From: an uncultured Hormoscilla sp.
GTDB lineage: Bacteria; Cyanobacteriota; Cyanobacteriia; Cyanobacteriales; Desertifilaceae
Direction: 5' to 3'
Assembly: GCA_963921275.4 (NCBI GenBank)
Contig: OZ001293.3
Location: 6,752,001-6,816,000, forward strand
Length of the DNA stretch: 64,000 bases
A program made the position numbers and the translations under genes. Every line of letters starts with the position of its first letter. Within the stretch, counting starts at the first letter, position 1. The notes beneath the pieces were generated by a model. That model saw only the letters and a program-made list of their open reading frames with translations. It was not told the origin of the DNA and searched no databases. Of this stretch, positions 40,899-50,960 are shown piece after piece.

Positions 40899-42491
40899 TT
40901 ACCGAACATCAGTAAACATGACTTTTTGTTGCTTGAAACCCGGAATGGGTTGAACCTTCCGACCATTGTCATAACAAGGTTCTATGAGCGAGTGAACCTT
41001 GGCCGCAAACAGGTAAGGACGAATTTGAGTCTTCTCGGGAATTTCTTTAAAGGCAAAGTACAAGGTGGTGGGCAAGTTGTGAATTGCTTGTCCGGTTATA
41101 TAGCCAACGAGATCGTGCTCGAAGCTGTGGAAGGCATTTTTCCAAGAATGTTGCTTGGGGAAGCGAATATCGGGAAGATTGTCCCGCGCATTCACCCAGT
41201 GCCAAATGCCACCATGTTTGTGGTCTACCATATGCTCGAACCAGTAAGCATAGGTGGTGGGCAGATATTTTGCGTAGGAGGGGATCCCGCAAGCTGAAGG
41301 TGGCGGCTGTTTGATCTAGTTCCGCTAAAATCCACCACTCTTTATCCGTTTCCAGTTGGCCGTATTGATTGATGCGCCGTCCCCAAGTCCCATCTTCTAG
41401 AAATGCTTCTTCAAAGATTAAAGGTACTTTTTCTTGGGCAAAGGCCGTGAGTTCGTAATGCCCGGTTAACTTGCCGATTTCATAGATCAACCACAAGGTT
41501 TTAATGGAGTGACCGAAGTCCGTATGGTCGGTTCCCAACCTTTGCTCGATCGGGTCGGTAATCGCACCGAAGAAAATATTGTTGTCTGGGGTGTAGAACT
41601 GCTCGGCCATAATTGTGGCCAGATGCACCAAGTCATCTTCCCATTTTGACCGCAGGGGTTTGCCGTTAAAGGTTTCTGGCAAGGTGGGAGTCAACAACAA
41701 CATATAACCGTAGACTTGGTCTAGTTGAGCGACTAATTCCCGTTGTTCGGTGCTAACTTTTTCTTCCGTACCGTCTGGATTGACGTAATCTACGTAATCC
41801 TCATGGGCCCAAGCGAGCAAATCCCATTCTTCGTCGTAATAGGTGTCAAAAATGTAATCTTTGAGAGCGACTATATCTGCCAATACATCGGTATCGCGGG
41901 TGAGATAGTAGTAAAATCCCAAGCCAGCAACAGCATAAGCCATGTCTTGACTGATGCGTCGAGCTTCACTCGGTAGGCCGACCCCATCTTCAAAGTAGGT
42001 GTAGGCTCCACCTTCTGGGGCTAAAGCGTGTGCGTGCAAATAGTCTACTCCAGCTTTAGCCAGTTTCAGGTATTTGCTCTCTCCGGTGAGATTGTAAGCA
42101 ACACCGTAGGCAAAGATTTGTCGGGACTTGGCGCGGACGTACTCCCGTTCGGGCTTGACGATACCGGGAACGGGATTTTCCAATTCCGGGCAGGGCTCTA
42201 CCATGTTGTACAAAGACCCGTCATTGCAGCGATAGGTGGGGTAGTTGCCAACGGGACTGCCCCATGCTGTCTGCATTTCCCAGAAGGGCAGCAAGTCTTC
42301 TTCCAGTGCTGAAGCCAACGACCGCCGGTGGGAACATCGCTAATAATTCCGTCGATATTATCGACAGGATATTGACGAGCCTCCGAAACGAATGCGGAAG
42401 CCGGTGTAACGCCATATACGCACAGAAGTGCCAAACTCAGCAATAGGCTGGCTGCCATCTTGAATAGACGATGGCGAGTTATGTCGAACAT
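40899..42491 (-). pseudogene. AGE (N-acylglucosamine 2-epimerase)-family protein with signal peptide; two 1-bp frameshifts (about 42305 and 41281)
   Basis: LLPFW, SRQIFAY, DFGHSIK, KEWWILAE, WKNAFHSFEH; leader MAASLLLSLALLCVYGVTPASA. Confidence 0.8.
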
Positions 42492-42561
42492 GAAAACTCT
42501 TCTTTTCTTTTGAGGTTGCCAAAAAAACACAAAGCCTTTTCTCTGGGCTTGGTTCTTCTCC

Positions 42562-42590
42562 ACTATATCCCCCTTATTTTTCAATGTCAA
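42562..42590 (-). promoter_or_regulatory. Sigma70-type promoter for the AGE/DJ-1 unit
   Basis: TTGACA-N17-TATAGT on the minus strand. Confidence 0.75.
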
Positions 42591-42715
42591 GCCCCAATAT
42601 CTACTTTTTTTTAGTCCCTTTATCCACCTTTTGGGGCCTACATGCACAAACTAAATAAGAGGCGAGAATATCTCAGAACCACAACCACCGGCGATCGCAC
42701 TGCAGGAGAATCCCC

Positions 42716-42754
42716 AAAAAAGAGCGATCGCCCAGGAAAGAGGCGATCGCTCTT
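42716..42754 (-). terminator. Terminator hairpin downstream of lodB
   Basis: AGAGCGATCGCC-loop-GGCGATCGCTCT followed by a T run (minus strand). Confidence 0.65.
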
Positions 42755-43070: not shown

Positions 43071-44465
43071 CTACCGAATAATTTCCTGCCCCAACAGATA
43101 TTGAAGCCCCTCAATCGCTCGATAAGCAGAAACTTTGCCCTCGGTGCGAGCCAGAAATTCCGCTGCTACATCGCTCGCTTGTTTGCCACCGACGCATAAC
43201 TCGCACAGCGTCAGCAAGTCTCGAAGAGGTAAATACATCTTCAGTCGCGGCAAAAATTTCGCATTGTCAGGCGATCGCTCGAAATAGAGAATTTTCGACG
43301 GATCGAGGGAGATTTGAAATCGACGCCGCTGCCAAAACTCAGAATTCGCCCAGCGCTTTTCTAAAGTATAATACTGGCGTCGGTCTTCTAAATACAGTTC
43401 AAACTGACGCCGAGTTTGCGATTCGTACTCGACAAGGGCTTCTCCATCCCCGGTGAAATAGCTGGCGATCGCCTCTGCCGCCCGAATGCCCGAGCGCAAT
43501 GCCTTGTAAATACCTGCCGAAGAAAGCGGATCGAAAGTGCAAGCCGCATCCCCAACTGCCAGCCAACCATCCCCCGCCATCATATCTAAATACTGGGAAA
43601 AAGCTGGTTGAATCTGAAGCTCGGACTTCCGCCGAGGTTGTTTTGCTGCAGGCGGTGAAAAAATAGGAATAGCAGTGGCGCCTGCAACCAGTTCGAGAAC
43701 GTGACGGGTTTTCGCCAGATTTGCCTGCCAACTTTCCCAACGAGAGAATTGATGCTCTCGCCACCGTTCGCGATCGCTCATCAAAGTGACAATGGCGCGA
43801 TTGTCGGGCAAGCGAGCCGCATACCACCAACCCAACTCCGCCGCTTCTACCAAGGTGTAACAATCTTTCTTTGCTTTCTCCTCAAACTCAAACACTGCGG
43901 CAATTCCCAACAGGCTATCCATCCGCACGGGATTGGCGCCTTGTTTTGTCGCAAATACGCACCGACGCCCGGTGGCATCGACGACGAAAGAGGTTTTTAA
44001 CTGGAATCGCAAACCATTTCCATCCAGAAGCACTAAACTCCATTTACCGTTGTTAAGGCGATCGCACCCCACCAGCCGCACGCCTCGCCTTAAAATCGCG
44101 CCCCTTTCTGCCGCCGCCTCTGCCAGGGAGGCATCGAACCGAGCTCGGTTCAAATGCCAACCGTTTCCCTCCAGAGAGAAAAAGAAATCCTGATAACCTA
44201 ACTCCGAGCTACCCCATGCCGAGCGGTTGCCCACAGAGGGGAGATGTTCTCCTGGCTCCAGGATATCTAGGACTCCTAATTGCGTCAGAGGCGATCGGAT
44301 ATTCGGCGGAACCGTTTCGCCGATGCGAAAGCGATTCTGGCAAGACTTTTCCAAAATCGCTACTCGCTTGTCTCCTTGCTGTTGGAGGGCGATCGCAGTA
44401 GCAGCCCCAGCAGGGCCGCCACCGATAATCGCCACATCGATCTCCAATGGGAAGCAATTAGCCAT
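43071..44465 (-). CDS. lodB: LodB/GoxB-type FAD-dependent flavoprotein (CTQ maturation)
   Basis: GGGPAG, VDATGR, GWWY, AVGDAA..DPLSSAGI; overlaps the lodA-like stop. Confidence 0.85.
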   Translation of the reverse strand: MANCFPLEIDVAIIGGGPAGAATAIALQQQGDKRVAILEKSCQNRFRIGETVPPNIRSPLTQLGVLDILEPGEHLPSVGNRSAWGSSELGYQDFFFSLEGNGWHLNRARFDASLAEAAAERGAILRRGVRLVGCDRLNNGKWSLVLLDGNGLRFQLKTSFVVDATGRRCVFATKQGANPVRMDSLLGIAAVFEFEEKAKKDCYTLVEAAELGWWYAARLPDNRAIVTLMSDRERWREHQFSRWESWQANLAKTRHVLELVAGATAIPIFSPPAAKQPRRKSELQIQPAFSQYLDMMAGDGWLAVGDAACTFDPLSSAGIYKALRSGIRAAEAIASYFTGDGEALVEYESQTRRQFELYLEDRRQYYTLEKRWANSEFWQRRRFQISLDPSKILYFERSPDNAKFLPRLKMYLPLRDLLTLCELCVGGKQASDVAAEFLARTEGKVSAYRAIEGLQYLLGQEIIR

Positions 44466-46282
44466 GAGGCAATTCTGACGATCGGGCAACTTCAGCAAAA
44501 TATTGCTTTAGTCCGTCTTTCGGGCCGACATCAAAAACGAATCCCAGTTGATACCATTTTTCCACCATCTCTATATCCTCAGGAAATATCATGTAATCGG
44601 GGCGGTTTTGATCGTAATCCGTTCCCACCCAAGGTACTTGCCGGCCTTTAATCATTTCATCAGTCCTGGCAGGATCTTCCTCCAAATACACGAATAACGG
44701 GCGTTGAGCCGGCCACCACCAAACAATTCGGTCGAGGAGTTGAGCAGAACATTCATTGAAGTCCGCTTGCCAAGGTAAAGCCATAAACTTGGTAACATCC
44801 CCTGGTTCCAGACCCGCGTCCAAGTCCATCCCTAAACTAAGTTCATTTGAAGTCATTGACCTGTGTTTGAGACGGAAAGGTTCCGAGTATATCTTGGGAT
44901 TGCGGCAAATCCAGGTCATTTCAATCCCCGGCGAAAAAGCTCCTCCCACGCAGTTCTCCAGCGATGCAATCGTTAGTTTCTCTGCTGCATCTGGCTCGTT
45001 ATTACTAGAACCATTACTAAATTTGCCCTCTGCCCATTGCTGTAGCAAGAAATACTGAGTATCGGTTAAAGTCAGATATTTAGACGACTTCTGGCTCGAA
45101 CCTGTAGCATCGTCCCCCGCCAAATAGGGCATCATCGGGTAGCCGGTGGTTTTGGACTTCAAAGTGTTTTTCTGATTGGGCGGTCGAATCTGGCTGAAAA
45201 AGTATTGCCGCAAACCGTTGTATTTTGCTTCGGGGTTCCCTAGTAAATTGTAGTCAAAGGTATGGGGTTTAGGCGGCATAGCAGTCACCCAGGGAAACAT
45301 GGAAGCCCGTTCTAGTATCGGTTTAATTTCCTGAGCGAAGTTGGGATGGTAATTATATTGCCAAAAACCATCCTTGTAAATATCTTTCCGATATTTCATG
45401 TTGCGAACTGCGACATCCAGCATCGTGTCGTAAAGCGTCACCAGATTCAGAATCTGGGGAGCATAGGCCGGTGGAGCCACCAATACCCAAGCCGGAGAAT
45501 TTACTTTGACGGAAGATCCGGCGTCATTTAGAAACACTTCTGCTGAAACCGTGCCGTCGGAGGTGTCATCCCACCAACCGTCACTATTTGCATAATCCTG
45601 CATCTCGGGCGGGTCGTTTTTGGAACCGGAGCGACCAAATCCACCAGCAAAAATCAGGTGTCCTTTTACATCCAGGTACATTTCTCCAAGCCGGTCAATG
45701 GTCTTATTATTAATGCTAATGTCGGGAACTTGAGGATATAGCTGTGTCTGCTGCGGCCAGGTTCCTCCGCAATGGCGATCGAAAAGGACCAGTTTTTGCA
45801 CAACCGTCATTTGTGTCTATAGTCTTGCTGCCTGGATCGATGATTAGTCTATGCCTTTCTTCATCACCCTTTACGTCGCTGTTTCGTAAAGGATGGTTGG
45901 GGGCGTATCCATCTTCTCCGTTTTTGGTCTGGAACTGATACCAGCTTGCCTTTTTATTGGCAATCCAAACTGTCCACTTAATCCTAGTAACAGCTTTTCC
46001 ATTGATCTGTGAGTTCAGTTCGACTTCTATGGGATTTGTATCATTTTCGCTTTTGTAGTGGTAAATCCGAAACCGCACGGCTTGTCGGCGCATTTTGCCG
46101 TTGCTATCTCGGAAGTCATTGCGACTGAATTGGCCTGCTTCCTGGATGGGAAGTTTTACTGTTCCATTTTCGGTGGTTAAGGGAGTGGGAAGACCTCCTG
46201 CGGTTTCTGGAGCTAGATAAAACTCCTCACTGTTGCCTACTCGGGCAACGCCGATAGCCGGGAAAATTTTATAAATTCCCAT
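44458..46282 (-). pseudogene. lodA: LodA/GoxA-family CTQ-dependent amino-acid oxidase with one frameshift (about 45780-45810)
   Basis: KIFPAIGVARVGNS, ANKKASWY, WWDDTSDG, CVGGAFSPGIE, PWQADFNEC (Asp/Cys), WWWPAQRP (Trp). Confidence 0.88.
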
Positions 46283-46460
46283 TGTTGTTTCCTCCTTTTA
46301 TTAGGATTCCGGTCAATTGATTGCTGTTGGGAAAGATAGCTGTTGGGTTATAATGGACTTGTAGTTTAATAACATACCGGGAAAGTTGGGTTTCCTTGCA
46401 CGGAACCCTACCTAGGATTTGTTTTCGCTGGTACTTTATTTTTGAGCAAGTCCCTAATTA

Positions 46461-46950
46461 TCAACTCCGGCGGTCTTTAAGGATATCGACAATGTTTTCA
46501 AGGGCATCCTGAATGCCGTGTAAGACCCTCTCCGTCTCCGTCGATTCCGAAAGTTCCTTGATTTTGATTTCGAGTTCGCCTTCCTTGATGTCGATCTCGG
46601 CCATCGGGGCAGCCATCTGGGGAATAGCATTGTCAATGGCATTCCTAACTGTCTTTAAGGTGGCGATCGTCGATGAATACGAAAGATTTGTTCCAGCCAG
46701 GATTGACTCGATCTTTTCCTTGAGTCCTTGTAAAGCCTCGCTGATATTGCTCGAACCAGTTGCGCTGTACTCATAACTCGGGCCAGCAGTAGGACCGAGA
46801 GTTGCATCGCCGTCTGCCATCGCTGGCGTTTGCATCAACTGAGTGGAGAGGGTGGGAAATACGCTATGCATGAGGGTGACAACTACGGTGAAGTATGAAT
46901 CTTCGTCGTTACTGAATATTGCTTCTAGTGCTTCAACCAAAATACTGTCT
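46461..46950 (-). pseudogene. C-terminal remnant of a ferritin-like (VioB/RebD-related) protein
   Basis: LM..V..LSTQLMQTP...GPTAGPSYEY motif; no plausible N-terminus. Confidence 0.55.
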
Positions 46951-47034
46951 GGAGAGCGCTATTCGCACTACTCCTCTAGACATTGAGCGCTAGATTACAA
47001 AAGTGATCTGCTGCCTGCACATTACTTGCGACTC

Positions 47035-47247
47035 ACTATAGTTCCCTCATAATTAACCTTTTTCTCAACGACAATCAACCTTTATCCACCTTTTTCACTG
47101 AAAACATCCACCTATTTTTGCCTACCTGCACAAAATGGTAATTTGTCAATCCTCCTCGAATCAACCTATTTTTGCCTACCTGCACAAAATGGCAATTTGT
47201 CTATCCCCCAAAATTAACCTATTTGGGCATCTAAAATCAACCTTTTT
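47035..47247 (-). promoter_or_regulatory. Promoter region with 7 copies of ATY(A/C)ACCT(A/T)T and a duplicated ~40-bp block
   Basis: Motifs at about 47052, 47074, 47084, 47106, 47160, 47213, 47236; TATAGT (minus strand) near 47035-47040. Confidence 0.65.
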
Positions 47248-47352
47248 GGCATGAGATTCGCCGGTTGGGGGCGCGAGCCCTTTCCATCCTCGAAGGAGGC
47301 GAGAAGATCTCAGAACCACAACCACCGGCGATCGCACTTCAGCAGAATCCAC

Positions 47353-47390
47353 AAAAAAAAGCGCTCACACCGAAAGAAGCGTGAGCGCTT
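47353..47390 (-). terminator. Terminator after the AAA_35 gene
   Basis: AAGCGCTCAC...GTGAGCGCTT followed by a T run (minus strand). Confidence 0.75.
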
Positions 47391-47412: not shown

Positions 47413-48732
47413 TTACAACTGGTCCCGAAAATACTGCCGATACAACTGGCAGCTAGCCATCACTTGATTGTGCTCCTTGCGGACCAGTCCCAAACAAATG
47501 AGCCCAAATGTCTGTTTTTGCTCTAATACTATCGGGGTTTCTGCTGTCACCACCTGCCGATAAGCCCCCAGAAGATAGGGGAAGTCTTGAAGAACCTGTA
47601 AGAGCGCGTGCAAATGGTCGCTAAAAATTCCCGTATCGGTGGCGGCACTTGCTCGCAACTGGTTCCAGTCCAGCTCGTAACGGGCCGCTTGGTAAAAGAG
47701 CTTGCGCGTTAGATAGGGAAAGCCCCCGACGAAAGACTGTAACTGAGTCAACTCCTGAGATGATAGGGGCAATTGGTGTCGTTGGGCCAAATCCTGTACC
47801 TGCAACGGGGTAAATGGTGGCAATTCTCGAACTAATCCGACATTCAAGGGCGACTTATTGAGTTCTGAATGAATATAAGTATTGGTAGAGTGGCAGGCAA
47901 CGATCCGGAGCTGTTGGCAGACGGGGCAATCTTTGGCCTCTTCGTGCCAGAATTGCAGTAGGGCCAAAAAATCGCGGGCAATGGCTGGATGCGACTCCAA
48001 CAACCGATTCACCTCATCCAGCCCTAAGACTATGGGATGGGAGATTTGCGCTAGGAGATACTTCTGGAAATAGAGATAACAGTTGGTCAAAGTCCCGATA
48101 TCCTCATTCCAATAGGAGCCTAACTCTTCGATATGAGCTTCGAGTCCCAACTGTAGAGTCATGTTGGCGCAGAACCACCGGAAAAACCGAACTGGCGATC
48201 GCAAAACAGTGCTACCGGCGCGATTCAGATTCAAACGGACGGTATGGTAGTGCTGTGTTTCGGCATGGGCCAGTATTCGGGTCAGAAGAGTAGTTTTGCC
48301 GATTTTACCTGGCCCTTTGAGGCTAATTACAGCCCCCGGTTCCAGGATTTCCTCGTACAAGCTCTGCTCCAATACCGGGCGCTCGATATAAAAAGGAGAC
48401 CCTAGGGACACTGGTCCCTCTGGCGATTCTAGCTTTACTGGCCTCACTTTTGTCTTGGAGATGGATTCTCGGCGTTCTTTGAGAATCAAGCCACAGTTGG
48501 CTTTGGTCACTTTTTTCCCAAAGGTCTGTGAAAGCAGGTGCCATAACTGGGGGATGACTTTCTTTTTCAGGTAGTTGGCAGAGTAGCCGCATTCAGAGGC
48601 AATGCGATCGTAGGTTTTTTTTTGGTCTTGGCAACATTCTCGCAAAACGAACTGTTGCATGTCGTTCAGAGATACGCCCATTTGGCGGGATATGGCAGCC
48701 TCGGCAAAGTTTACTAGTTCCTCTGTATTCAT
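47413..48732 (-). CDS. N-terminal HTH + AAA_35 (STAND-like) ATPase
   Basis: TYDRIASECGYSANYLK..LW.LLS...GKKVTK N-domain; PEGPVSLGSPFYIER, GPGKIGKTT, LGLDEV. Confidence 0.85.
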   Translation of the reverse strand: MNTEELVNFAEAAISRQMGVSLNDMQQFVLRECCQDQKKTYDRIASECGYSANYLKKKVIPQLWHLLSQTFGKKVTKANCGLILKERRESISKTKVRPVKLESPEGPVSLGSPFYIERPVLEQSLYEEILEPGAVISLKGPGKIGKTTLLTRILAHAETQHYHTVRLNLNRAGSTVLRSPVRFFRWFCANMTLQLGLEAHIEELGSYWNEDIGTLTNCYLYFQKYLLAQISHPIVLGLDEVNRLLESHPAIARDFLALLQFWHEEAKDCPVCQQLRIVACHSTNTYIHSELNKSPLNVGLVRELPPFTPLQVQDLAQRHQLPLSSQELTQLQSFVGGFPYLTRKLFYQAARYELDWNQLRASAATDTGIFSDHLHALLQVLQDFPYLLGAYRQVVTAETPIVLEQKQTFGLICLGLVRKEHNQVMASCQLYRQYFRDQL

Positions 48733-49617: not shown

Positions 49618-50238
49618 TTATTTACTTGTCCCTACCTGCAATACCTGCTTTGCTGTCAAAGGTGACTCTTGACCCAATTCTGACAGTAGAACAGAGGCGA
49701 TCGCATCATCTCCCGCAAACACTGCCTCGCAATATTGTCCCGCCACCAGACTCAATACTGTAATCTGCTTCTGGATCGGGTCAATTATCCAATATTCGGC
49801 AATTTGGAGGGCTTGGTATTGCGATCGCTTGTAGCGATAATCTCGGTCTGCATTTTCCCGTCCGGGACTGACTACCTCCACCATTAACTGCGGCGGCGGC
49901 ATATCGGGCATCACAATTGAACGACTTGCCCCTTCCAATGCTTGCGCTAATTCCTCTGTCAGCACCGTAAAATCTGGGAGTCGCACTGATGAGCGCGTTC
50001 CACTCACCGCCACTTCTATCCCAATCCTCAACCGATAAAACTCAATCCCTAGTTGCAGAAAATAGGCAAACAAAAAAGAAGCAATTCGTTGATTTACGTC
50101 GCTCTCACTTGACATAAACAGTAGTCTCCCATCCTCTAGCTCATAACGAGCATCTGTACCATCATCATAGTTGAGGAAGTCTTCCAAGGACATGATTGAG
50201 GATGTCACCTCGTCCCTTGTAGTCAGTGCATTCGTCAT
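49618..50238 (-). CDS. Uma2-family endonuclease
   Basis: RYELEDG, R.PD, VEVVSP, YKRSQY, EYWIIDP. Confidence 0.92.
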   Translation of the reverse strand: MTNALTTRDEVTSSIMSLEDFLNYDDGTDARYELEDGRLLFMSSESDVNQRIASFLFAYFLQLGIEFYRLRIGIEVAVSGTRSSVRLPDFTVLTEELAQALEGASRSIVMPDMPPPQLMVEVVSPGRENADRDYRYKRSQYQALQIAEYWIIDPIQKQITVLSLVAGQYCEAVFAGDDAIASVLLSELGQESPLTAKQVLQVGTSK

Positions 50239-50339
50239 GCTATCATTCCTCCCATAACCTCAGTTTGGCGATCTTTATAAATCCTAGCAATTATCGTGCC
50301 CGCGATCGCAGACATATTTCTGGCATTAGTAGCCGGAGT

Positions 50340-50960
50340 TTATTTACTTGTCCCTACTTGCAATACCTGCATTGCTGTCAAAGGTGATTCTTGACCCAAT
50401 TTTGACAGCAGCGCCGACGCGATCGCATCATCCCCGGCAAACACTGCTTCTTCATAAAGTCCCTCCACCAGAGTCAATACCGTAATCTGCTCCTGTATCG
50501 GGTCAACTATCCAATATTCGGCAATTTGGAGGGCTTGGTATTGCGATCGCTTGTAGCGATAATCTCTATCTGCATTTTCCCGTCCGGGGCTGACTACTTC
50601 CACCACTAACTGCGGCGGCGGCATATCAGGCTTCACCATGGAACGACTTGCCCCTTCCAATGCTTGCACTAATTCCTCTGTCAGCACCATCAAATCTGGG
50701 AGTCGCACTGATGAGCGCGTCCCACTCACCGCCACTTCTGTCTTCACGGTCAACCGAGAAAAGGAAATCCCCAGTCCGATAAAATATACCAACAAAAACA
50801 TTGCAATACGTCGATTTACCTCGCTCTCGCAAGGCATAAACAGCAGTCTCCCATCCTCTAACTCATAAAGAGCATCTGTACCATCATCGTAGTTGAGAAA
50901 TTCCGACAAGGACATGACAGAGGATGTCACATCTTCCCCGATCCTGACTGCATTCGTCAT
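50340..50960 (-). CDS. Uma2-family endonuclease (tandem paralogue)
   Basis: Same motifs; shares about 50 bp of upstream sequence with the neighbouring copy. Confidence 0.92.
   Translation of the reverse strand: MTNAVRIGEDVTSSVMSLSEFLNYDDGTDALYELEDGRLLFMPCESEVNRRIAMFLLVYFIGLGISFSRLTVKTEVAVSGTRSSVRLPDLMVLTEELVQALEGASRSMVKPDMPPPQLVVEVVSPGRENADRDYRYKRSQYQALQIAEYWIVDPIQEQITVLTLVEGLYEEAVFAGDDAIASALLSKLGQESPLTAMQVLQVGTSK

Follow-up and report, generated by a model that had tools for sequence, protein, structure and literature searches.

Organization of the locus

The window, as we call the whole 64,000-nucleotide stretch of DNA analysed here (contig OZ001293.3 of assembly GCA_963921275.4, from an uncultured Hormoscilla sp.), contains an array of short repeated sites within a run of genes that all lie on the minus strand, as do the features described below unless indicated. 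In the order of transcription, an intact gene for a 439-aa protein with HTH_VMAP-M9 (PF26355) and AAA_35 (PF14516) domains, a Walker A motif GPGKIGKT and a Walker B motif LGLDE (47413-48732) is followed by a terminator-like hairpin at the boundary between gene and array (47359-47390), the array, promoter-like hexamers, an ORF of unknown family, a LodA-like oxidase gene split into two frames (45716-46282 and 44458-45810, together 44458-46282), and a flavoprotein gene identified in a domain scan as an FAD-dependent oxidoreductase (43071-44498), which we take to be the usual LodA partner. The array is therefore found past the 3′ end of the ATPase gene and its hairpin, and not in the ATPase promoter. 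The first ORF downstream of it, hereafter the first cargo ORF (46461-46940, start position uncertain), had no family match in Pfam/NCBIfam-type domain searches, and its leader carries a short dispersed repeat (46940-46990) with about 30 BLAST matches in the genome. Two copies of an 80-bp direct repeat (unstranded, from a repeat search; 47296-47375 and 42659-42738, 88% identical) flank the array and its cargo. Further on lies an AGE-like gene (40899-42492; domain scan), fragmented in this strain and a single ORF in locus L022 and in genome G001. Contigs of runs X1-X3, from one study that is possibly the source of the assembly, are identical to 45186-47198, and those of X1 and X2 also to 41000-42699; assembly errors are therefore unlikely to account for the array up to 47198 or for the LodA-like and AGE-like frameshifts. 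X1-X3 also contain deeper contigs with about 85-90% likeness to the ATPase, flavoprotein and LodA-like genes, which points to a second organism in these samples with a related cassette. Runs X5-X8 contributed only short low-depth pieces; in X6-X8 some loose ends could be matched to the copy of the L020 type.

A seven-site array and its promoter

The sequence-only reading had described a 10-mer, ATY(A/C)ACCT(A/T)T, repeated seven times in one orientation, and the count is exact: the matches begin at 47052, 47074, 47084, 47106, 47160, 47213 and 47236, all on one strand, and the remaining matches in the window are at 42622, 62275 and 29855. The genome holds 153 matches in 7.03 Mb, a rate at which the Poisson probability of seven or more in 200 bp is about 5e-23. 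The seven sites do not amount to seven independent events, because a 54-bp tandem duplication (47106-47224, unstranded; 2.2 copies with 87% matches in a repeat search) supplies one of them. On contig C1 there are 152 matches against 125 expected, and some 32 of them lie in the modules described below, which leaves the rest near background; the possibility, raised with the original observation, that the motif merely occurs at background frequency genome-wide thus holds outside the modules, and inside them the motif is strongly clustered.

Read towards the promoter, the array begins with a distal site, AAAGGTTGAT on the transcribed strand (site 1, 47236-47245), placed by motif search and with a homologous distal site in other copies, and continues with site 2 (47213-47222), 23 bp from site 1, and site 3 (47160-47169, slot -86), 53 bp from site 2, both placed by motif search and copy alignment. 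Copy alignment also reveals, 11 bp past site 3, a degenerate partner site, AGGAGGAT (47149-47156), adjoining a conserved TTGACAAA block (47142-47149; 0.25 parsimony steps per column) that could be read as an upstream -35-like hexamer or as the site of a second factor, and whose duplicate at 47198-47203 reads TAGACA. Motif search then places site 4 (47106-47115, slot -32) and, 22 bp from it, site 5 (47084-47093, slot -10). Site 6 (47074-47083, slot 0) comes 10 bp after site 5 and overlaps by its final base the start of a -35-like TTGTCG (47069-47074; TTGTCA in most copies), and site 7 (47052-47061) sits between the -35-like and -10-like hexamers and occurs only in the subtype of the window (the window, L002 and L023). 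The -10-like TATGAG (47046-47051) lies 17 bp from TTGTCG, in the register of the whole family, these last three assignments again coming from copy alignment. A second -10-like TATAGT (47035-47040), evident from the sequence, lies 11 bp beyond TATGAG. This TATAGT (47040-47035) had been taken as a -10 box with no good -35, and it indeed lacks one at 17 bp, but the combination TTGTCG(47074-47069)-N17-TATGAG(47051-47046), seen on aligning other copies, had been missed, as had the conservation of a -35-like hexamer in 20 of 21 copies.

An echo of the array upstream of the AGE-like gene was also correctly noted, TTTATCCACCTTTT being present at 42619-42632 and CCTACATGCACAAA at 42637-42650, together with TTGACA-N17-TATAGT at 42590-42562 on the minus strand. 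The region (42562-42653; nhmmer E 0.1) is a degenerate module that retains one good site and decayed proximal sites in front of these hexamers, and a full-length homologue occupies the same locus in G001. In L021, a group II intron-like element, judged by eye, begins at about 6480 inside the AGE module, immediately past a conserved TTTGTGCA.

A family of portable modules

The sequence-only reading had not seen that the array is one copy of a control module of about 150 bp, other copies of which stand at unlinked places in the source genome and in further genomes, ahead of genes that differ from copy to copy. C1 has five further motif clusters with four or five copies each and one with two, all homologous to the window array; a profile search of the source genome found five full modules plus fragments, including the AGE promoter at E 0.1, the unlinked modules lying at about 2089.9k, 2667.1k, 4295.7k and 4769.0k of C1. 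Modules occur in all four other Hormoscilla genomes, and two Prochloron-group genomes have one each, immediately following an ATPase gene 90-92% identical to that of the window. Full modules counted by BLAST without the pattern number two (plus a fragment) in G001, two in G002, one in G003, about twelve in G004 (four of them nearly identical) and one each in G427 and G428. A 21-base pattern is found in 5/5 genomes of the genus, 0/9 other genomes of the family and 1/27 further genomes, this lone outside match lying inside a gene and being dismissed as chance; a second pattern matches one of 401 genomes of the phylum, namely the source genome, in a sample without any other visible member of the genus. 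The JGI metagenomes searched for the motif gave no match. The closest relatives of the ATPase gene are in Hormoscilla, Prochloron and Ca. Paraprochloron, the latter two forming one GTDB genus.

Across 111 sites the consensus on the transcribed strand is an A-rich stretch followed by AGGT(G/T)(G/A)AT. Site offsets upstream of the -35 element are 0, -10, -31 to -33 and -83 to -87, with another site 23-24 or 33-34 bp further, corresponding to spacings of 10, 21-23, 51-57 and 23-24 or 33-34 bp, close to multiples of 10-11 bp, so that the two module subtypes differ in their distal spacing by one helical turn. Taken together, the site positions fit best to a period of 10.9 bp (R 0.58, from non-independent points), and the 10-bp step is not an independent finding, because it was built into the first search pattern. 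The proximal site overlaps a TTGTCA-like hexamer by a single base, its own last and the hexamer's first, and the -35-like and -10-like hexamers are 17-18 bp apart, in fixed register to the sites, in 20 of 21 copies. The TTGACAAA block, some 10 bp past the -86 site, shows conservation equal to that of the sites and may be an upstream promoter or the site of a second factor. Weak nhmmer matches to a TTGACAAA...TTGTG motif without sites (G000:C1 3291778, 2042166, 25554, 4170764 and 6307582) possibly mark the site of a second regulator. At one locus shared by G003 and G004 (L185 and L199), two tandem sites stand alone ahead of TTGTCC, with no upstream module.

The genes downstream of the modules vary from copy to copy. 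They include a subtilase-family PatA-like protease (Pfam S8), presumably a cyanobactin protease, a DUF3865 gene, a PixA-like protein, pieces with a Tc TcA C-terminal domain, an operon whose second gene is MACPF-like, a GMC oxidoreductase with a ferritin-like gene, the LodA-like operon of the window and, by eye, LRR, RHS-like and signal-peptide proteins; a few copies (L002, L071 and C1:4296569) face insertion sequences or no gene. L014 and L015 share an upstream gene and differ in cargo (a DUF3865 cluster and an RHS-like gene), and the closely related L004 precedes Tc-like pieces. Homology among copies stops at varying distances past the -10, and capture is accordingly not tied to a specific site. 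In G004, several copies retain the 3′ end or the terminator of the ATPase gene which, with the 80-bp repeat around array and cargo, indicates that copies arise by duplication from the ATPase-linked locus. In the Prochloron-group genomes the ATPase gene is accompanied by the two tandem Uma2 genes found at 49618-50960 of the window, with 90-94% identity. Transfer between Hormoscilla and Prochloron is plausible because the two share some sponges, according to the available text of PMC7313196; its direction, inferred from copy number, would be out of Hormoscilla, the existing copy tree grouping only close copies.

A different reading makes the arrays ends or attachment sites of mobile elements, or iterons or DnaA boxes of an integrated replicon. 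The copies at C1:4295547 and 4296569 face each other around one gene, the 80-bp direct repeat brackets array and cargo, and the block has moved between lineages; but homology boundaries differ from pair to pair with none fixed, the flanking ORFs examined have no transposase, integrase or rep gene in common, the register to the -35 and -10 elements is constant, and a single one of the seven sites is within one mismatch of the DnaA box consensus, the others being three or four away. We consider such an origin very improbable. As to a structured RNA or riboswitch, which we rejected, there was no Rfam match at E<=1 and the folding z was -0.13.

Selection on the sites

On a 20-copy tree, from which the truncated L005, near-identical G004 duplicates, the interrupted L198 and the AGE-type copies were omitted, parsimony steps per column were 0.64 for the sites, 0.25 for the TTGACAAA block, 0.60 for the -35 element and 2.38 for the spacers, and the two upstream sites alone, which lay outside the first search pattern, gave a permutation p=0.002. 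Between-subtype pairs in the source genome have 0/28 site differences against 40-44 differences in 82-83 spacer positions; for the window and the C1:4769k copy the figures are 0/28 and 44/82 (p=3e-8), and from this contrast between diverged copies we infer that the sites are under selection. Over 16 pairs, the site-versus-spacer test gave p<0.05 in nine and not in seven. Copies with decayed sites are harder to detect, which inflates apparent conservation, a bias that the p=3e-8 for the window and C1:4769k is judged to withstand. The sites look like selected, helically phased putative protein-binding sites beside a sigma70-type promoter, and the module as a whole is very probably a real, selected and portable transcription-factor operator-promoter.

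No dedicated regulator would be needed if a strong promoter with phased A-tracts (bent, UP-element-like DNA), read by RNA polymerase alone, had been copied about through duplication and insertion sequences. A- and T-runs do flank each site, and the several G004 copies with the ATPase 3′ end or terminator are recent duplicates; yet the best-conserved bases are GGT-GAT and not the A-runs alone, the sites are unchanged between subtypes whose spacers have diverged at about half of their positions, and sites are kept 86-160 bp upstream, beyond the usual footprint of the polymerase. This explanation therefore seems improbable to us. The bases of the sites also invite comparison with Pho boxes read by SphR/PhoB: ATTAACCT is one base off the SphR consensus CTTAACCT given in the portion of PMC1906773 at hand, and the period is near 11 bp. 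In the native pstS promoter, however, the repeats have a TTAA core, follow one another at exactly 11 bp and read on the coding strand; the array is oppositely oriented, is spaced 10/22/54 and has TC(A/C)A as the core of most of its sites, and a genome scan for three tandem boxes gave three matches, none of them in modules, so that we give this reading hardly any credence. The native Pho-box-like sequence, at G000:C1 ~6593690-6593735, repeats the TTAA core four times with an 11-bp period in front of pstS, and a second pstS copy nearby is fragmented.

The adjacent HTH-AAA_35 protein

The 439-aa protein consists of an HTH at residues 1-92 and AAA_35 at 104-436 (PF14516 E 2e-116), with no room for a sensor, and in precomputed domains for the 120 best hits listed the order is likewise PF26355 then PF14516; databases contain at least 598 relatives with this pair. 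G145, K146 and D239 of the Walker motifs are invariant in the close clade. The full-length model (pLDDT 87) matches STAND/NLR/Avs/Orc1/Cdc6 folds in Foldseek, and the MalT-MalY entry 8bob at E 9e-6. That the N-terminal domain looks like an HTH had been proposed from the sequence and agrees with its assignment to PF26355 (HTH_VMAP-M9), the ten best atlas hits with a family all belonging to PF26355 or its clan (scores 0.89), and with the predicted LuxR/NarL-like fold of its model (pLDDT 91.6), whose top eight structure matches are NarL/RcsB/DosR (LuxR-type) HTHs at Z 7.4, rmsd 2.6 A and 65 aligned residues, where a Z below 8 may reflect a common arrangement. Foldseek with the N-domain gave no match at E<=0.001, a Pfam scan of the protein gave no LuxR match and a PDB sequence search with the HTH profile no useful one; the LuxR-like assignment is a lead rather than proof. 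The ATPase gene is disabled in four of six related copies, with dN/dS of 0.33-0.52, which counts against it as the reader of the array. Our literature searches, largely confined to open-access main texts, found no paper on the motif or on a DNA target of PF26355 proteins; the available parts of PMC7159879, PMC8195603, PMC6520454 and PMC3161199 contain nothing on the module, and the VMAP supplements of PMC7159879 may say more on the domain.

Does the ATPase read the array?

The proposal of the sequence-only reading that the sites serve the adjacent AAA_35 protein stands in part: phased and selected sites, a predicted HTH and co-occurrence of clade and module support it, but sites persist where the gene is broken and arrays are missing beside distant homologues. 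The full array follows the ATPase gene in the window and in four of six gene-length relatives (L020, L022, L023 and L024); in the other two, L019 and L021, the gene runs into the degenerate AGE module. A recognition-helix signature occurs in three of 151 genomes of the order, all array-bearing, and the nine other family genomes have neither a close ATPase orthologue nor the array pattern. The pattern occurs once in G427, beside the ATPase gene, and the one copy found in G428 is likewise beside it; within the genus, genomes with an intact gene have the highest numbers of module copies. This co-distribution of ATPase clade and module goes back to only two or three independent events (one origin and one or two transfers), and any gene takes its neighbour with it.

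None of 107 distant AAA_35 loci (27 from genomes and 80 from metagenomes, the latter spanning 557 kb) has such an array alongside, so that a general rule placing HTH-AAA_35 genes beside arrays of their own was discarded. Arrays of any kind occur in 6/280 intergenic regions at distant loci against 182/2936 in the genome control; even L086, 56% identical and with the same helix signature, has none alongside. Autoregulation of the ATPase was also discarded, no site lying within 400 bp upstream in six related copies. Other short-word arrays are seen upstream of L055 and near L049 and L092, all distant homologues, at no more than the control rate.

Gene loss offers a further comparison. At the syntenic locus of G001 the ATPase gene is missing, with a likely 3′ remnant before the AGE module (2/1000 shuffles), and 5/11 sites are intact in this genome against 46/52 in G000 and G004 (Fisher p=0.004). 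In the sites of its copy L180, change goes on at the spacer rate (sites 3/28, spacers 11/81), in favour of the ATPase as binder; its copy L009 keeps its sites (1/28, against 25/82 in spacers), which counts against it. G428, with an intact gene, has one of four slots intact and no site-over-spacer conservation (sites 3/28, spacers 15/83), and in G002, G003 and G427 the gene is broken and the sites are nearly perfect. Pooled, genomes with intact genes retain 47/56 sites against 19/27 with broken genes, a difference without significance (p=0.16).

These exceptions would be accounted for if the array were a real operator read by another trans factor, such as an HTH_VMAP-M9 paralogue, a response regulator or a sigma factor, with the ATPase simply the neighbour of the ancestral copy. 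Three further proteins with a PF26355-type HTH are encoded in the source genome, in G002 an array and one of the paralogues are 5.7 kb apart, arrays remain where the ATPase gene is broken or lost, distant ATPase homologues lack them, and the TTGACAAA block, conserved like the sites, makes a second factor possible. The paralogue tested (C1:938401), however, is present only in G000, G003 and G004 and not in G001, G002, G427 or G428, paralogues and arrays show no recurrent adjacency, and the pattern is absent from nine sister genomes, which would be expected to share general regulators. We regard another binder as unlikely, if far from negligible, and the adjacent HTH-AAA_35 ATPase as a candidate on which our own opinion is evenly divided.

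Proposed mechanism and significance

The explanation that we favour, and to which as a whole we assign a probability of about one half, is that the adjacent HTH-AAA_35 (STAND) protein binds the phased 10-bp sites cooperatively. It would line up, as monomers or as an oligomer assembled with ATP, on one face of the DNA over the head-to-tail sites through the N-terminal LuxR-like HTH, bringing the proximal subunit against the -35 element and into contact with RNA polymerase, and the ATPase would thereby switch on the downstream gene, predicted to have a defence, secreted or biosynthetic function. The protein lacks a sensor domain, so a partner protein or its own nucleotide state would have to supply the trigger. 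Copies would have spread by duplication, and gene and array would have moved once or twice into Prochloron-group symbionts. As for the mode of action, activation seems somewhat the better guess, and repression a serious contender. Activation is favoured because TTGACA stands at the proximal -35 in copies with decayed proximal sites (42590-42585, C1:2666830-911 and G001) and in none of the 21 intact modules, a pattern that may reflect shared ancestry; repression is favoured by the near-consensus hexamers and by the extra site inside the promoter in the window's subtype.

If true, this would provide the first DNA target, a 10-bp site of defined geometry, for the PF26355 and PF14516 pair, and would explain the control of cyanobactin, other biosynthetic and host-interaction genes in uncultured symbionts, the module serving as a mark of such genes. 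Even with another binder, the module would be a selected cis-element defining a regulon in an uncultured genus.

Comparison with known systems

The HTH of MalT is of the LuxR type. The array differs from iterons in that no rep gene was found among its scanned neighbours in the window. The cyanobacterial Pho box of SphR, in the available part of PMC1906773, resembles it in having direct repeats that end in ACCT with a period near 11 bp; unlike the array in orientation, core and spacing, it is composed of three tandem 8-mers (CTTAACCT) with 3-bp linkers. The VMAP ternary conflict systems, as presented in the accessible text of PMC7159879, have the same Pfam domains, cyanobacterial occurrence and conflict-type gene linkage, but no MoxR or vWA gene is found among the 24 ORFs between 30.7 and 61 kb of the window.

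Among transcriptional regulators, SARP-LAL proteins (PimR) and AfsR, which control secondary metabolism, bind direct repeats cooperatively as monomers at 10-11 bp, according to the portion of PMC5930380 available to us. Like them, the protein of the window couples a predicted N-terminal DNA-binding domain to an ATPase; unlike them, it has no SARP domain in Pfam and NCBIfam scans, its N-domain being PF26355, and the contiguous SARP-LAL heptamers with 3-4 bp spacers (in the same portion of that source) contrast with sites of 8-10 bp at 10, 22, 54 and 23/33 bp. MalT of E. coli undergoes ATP- and ligand-dependent oligomerization and binds several promoter sites cooperatively in activation, as described in the available text of PMC10427625. 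The likeness to MalT-type activators drawn in the sequence-only reading survives in the predicted STAND fold with intact Walker A/B motifs, in a promoter with several predicted sites and perhaps in the putative LuxR-like HTH; by domain order the protein is not a MalT/LAL member, its HTH being N-terminal rather than C-terminal after an arm and a sensor, neither of which its 439 aa contain. The site sequence is also different, a -35-like hexamer has been retained, and the presumed targets are effector and biosynthetic genes that change from copy to copy. By analogy, the HTH-AAA_35 protein could work like MalT or SARP-LAL regulators, its domain order differing from theirs. More tentatively, the abundant HTH_VMAP-M9-AAA_35 proteins of cyanobacteria might be sensor-less, reverse-order MalT-like switches for transcription. 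In Hormoscilla one such protein would govern a plug-in regulon, with copies of its phased operator-promoter placed before recently acquired effector and natural-product genes, and regulator and module would pass as a cassette between co-resident sponge and ascidian symbionts, taking on new cargo there.
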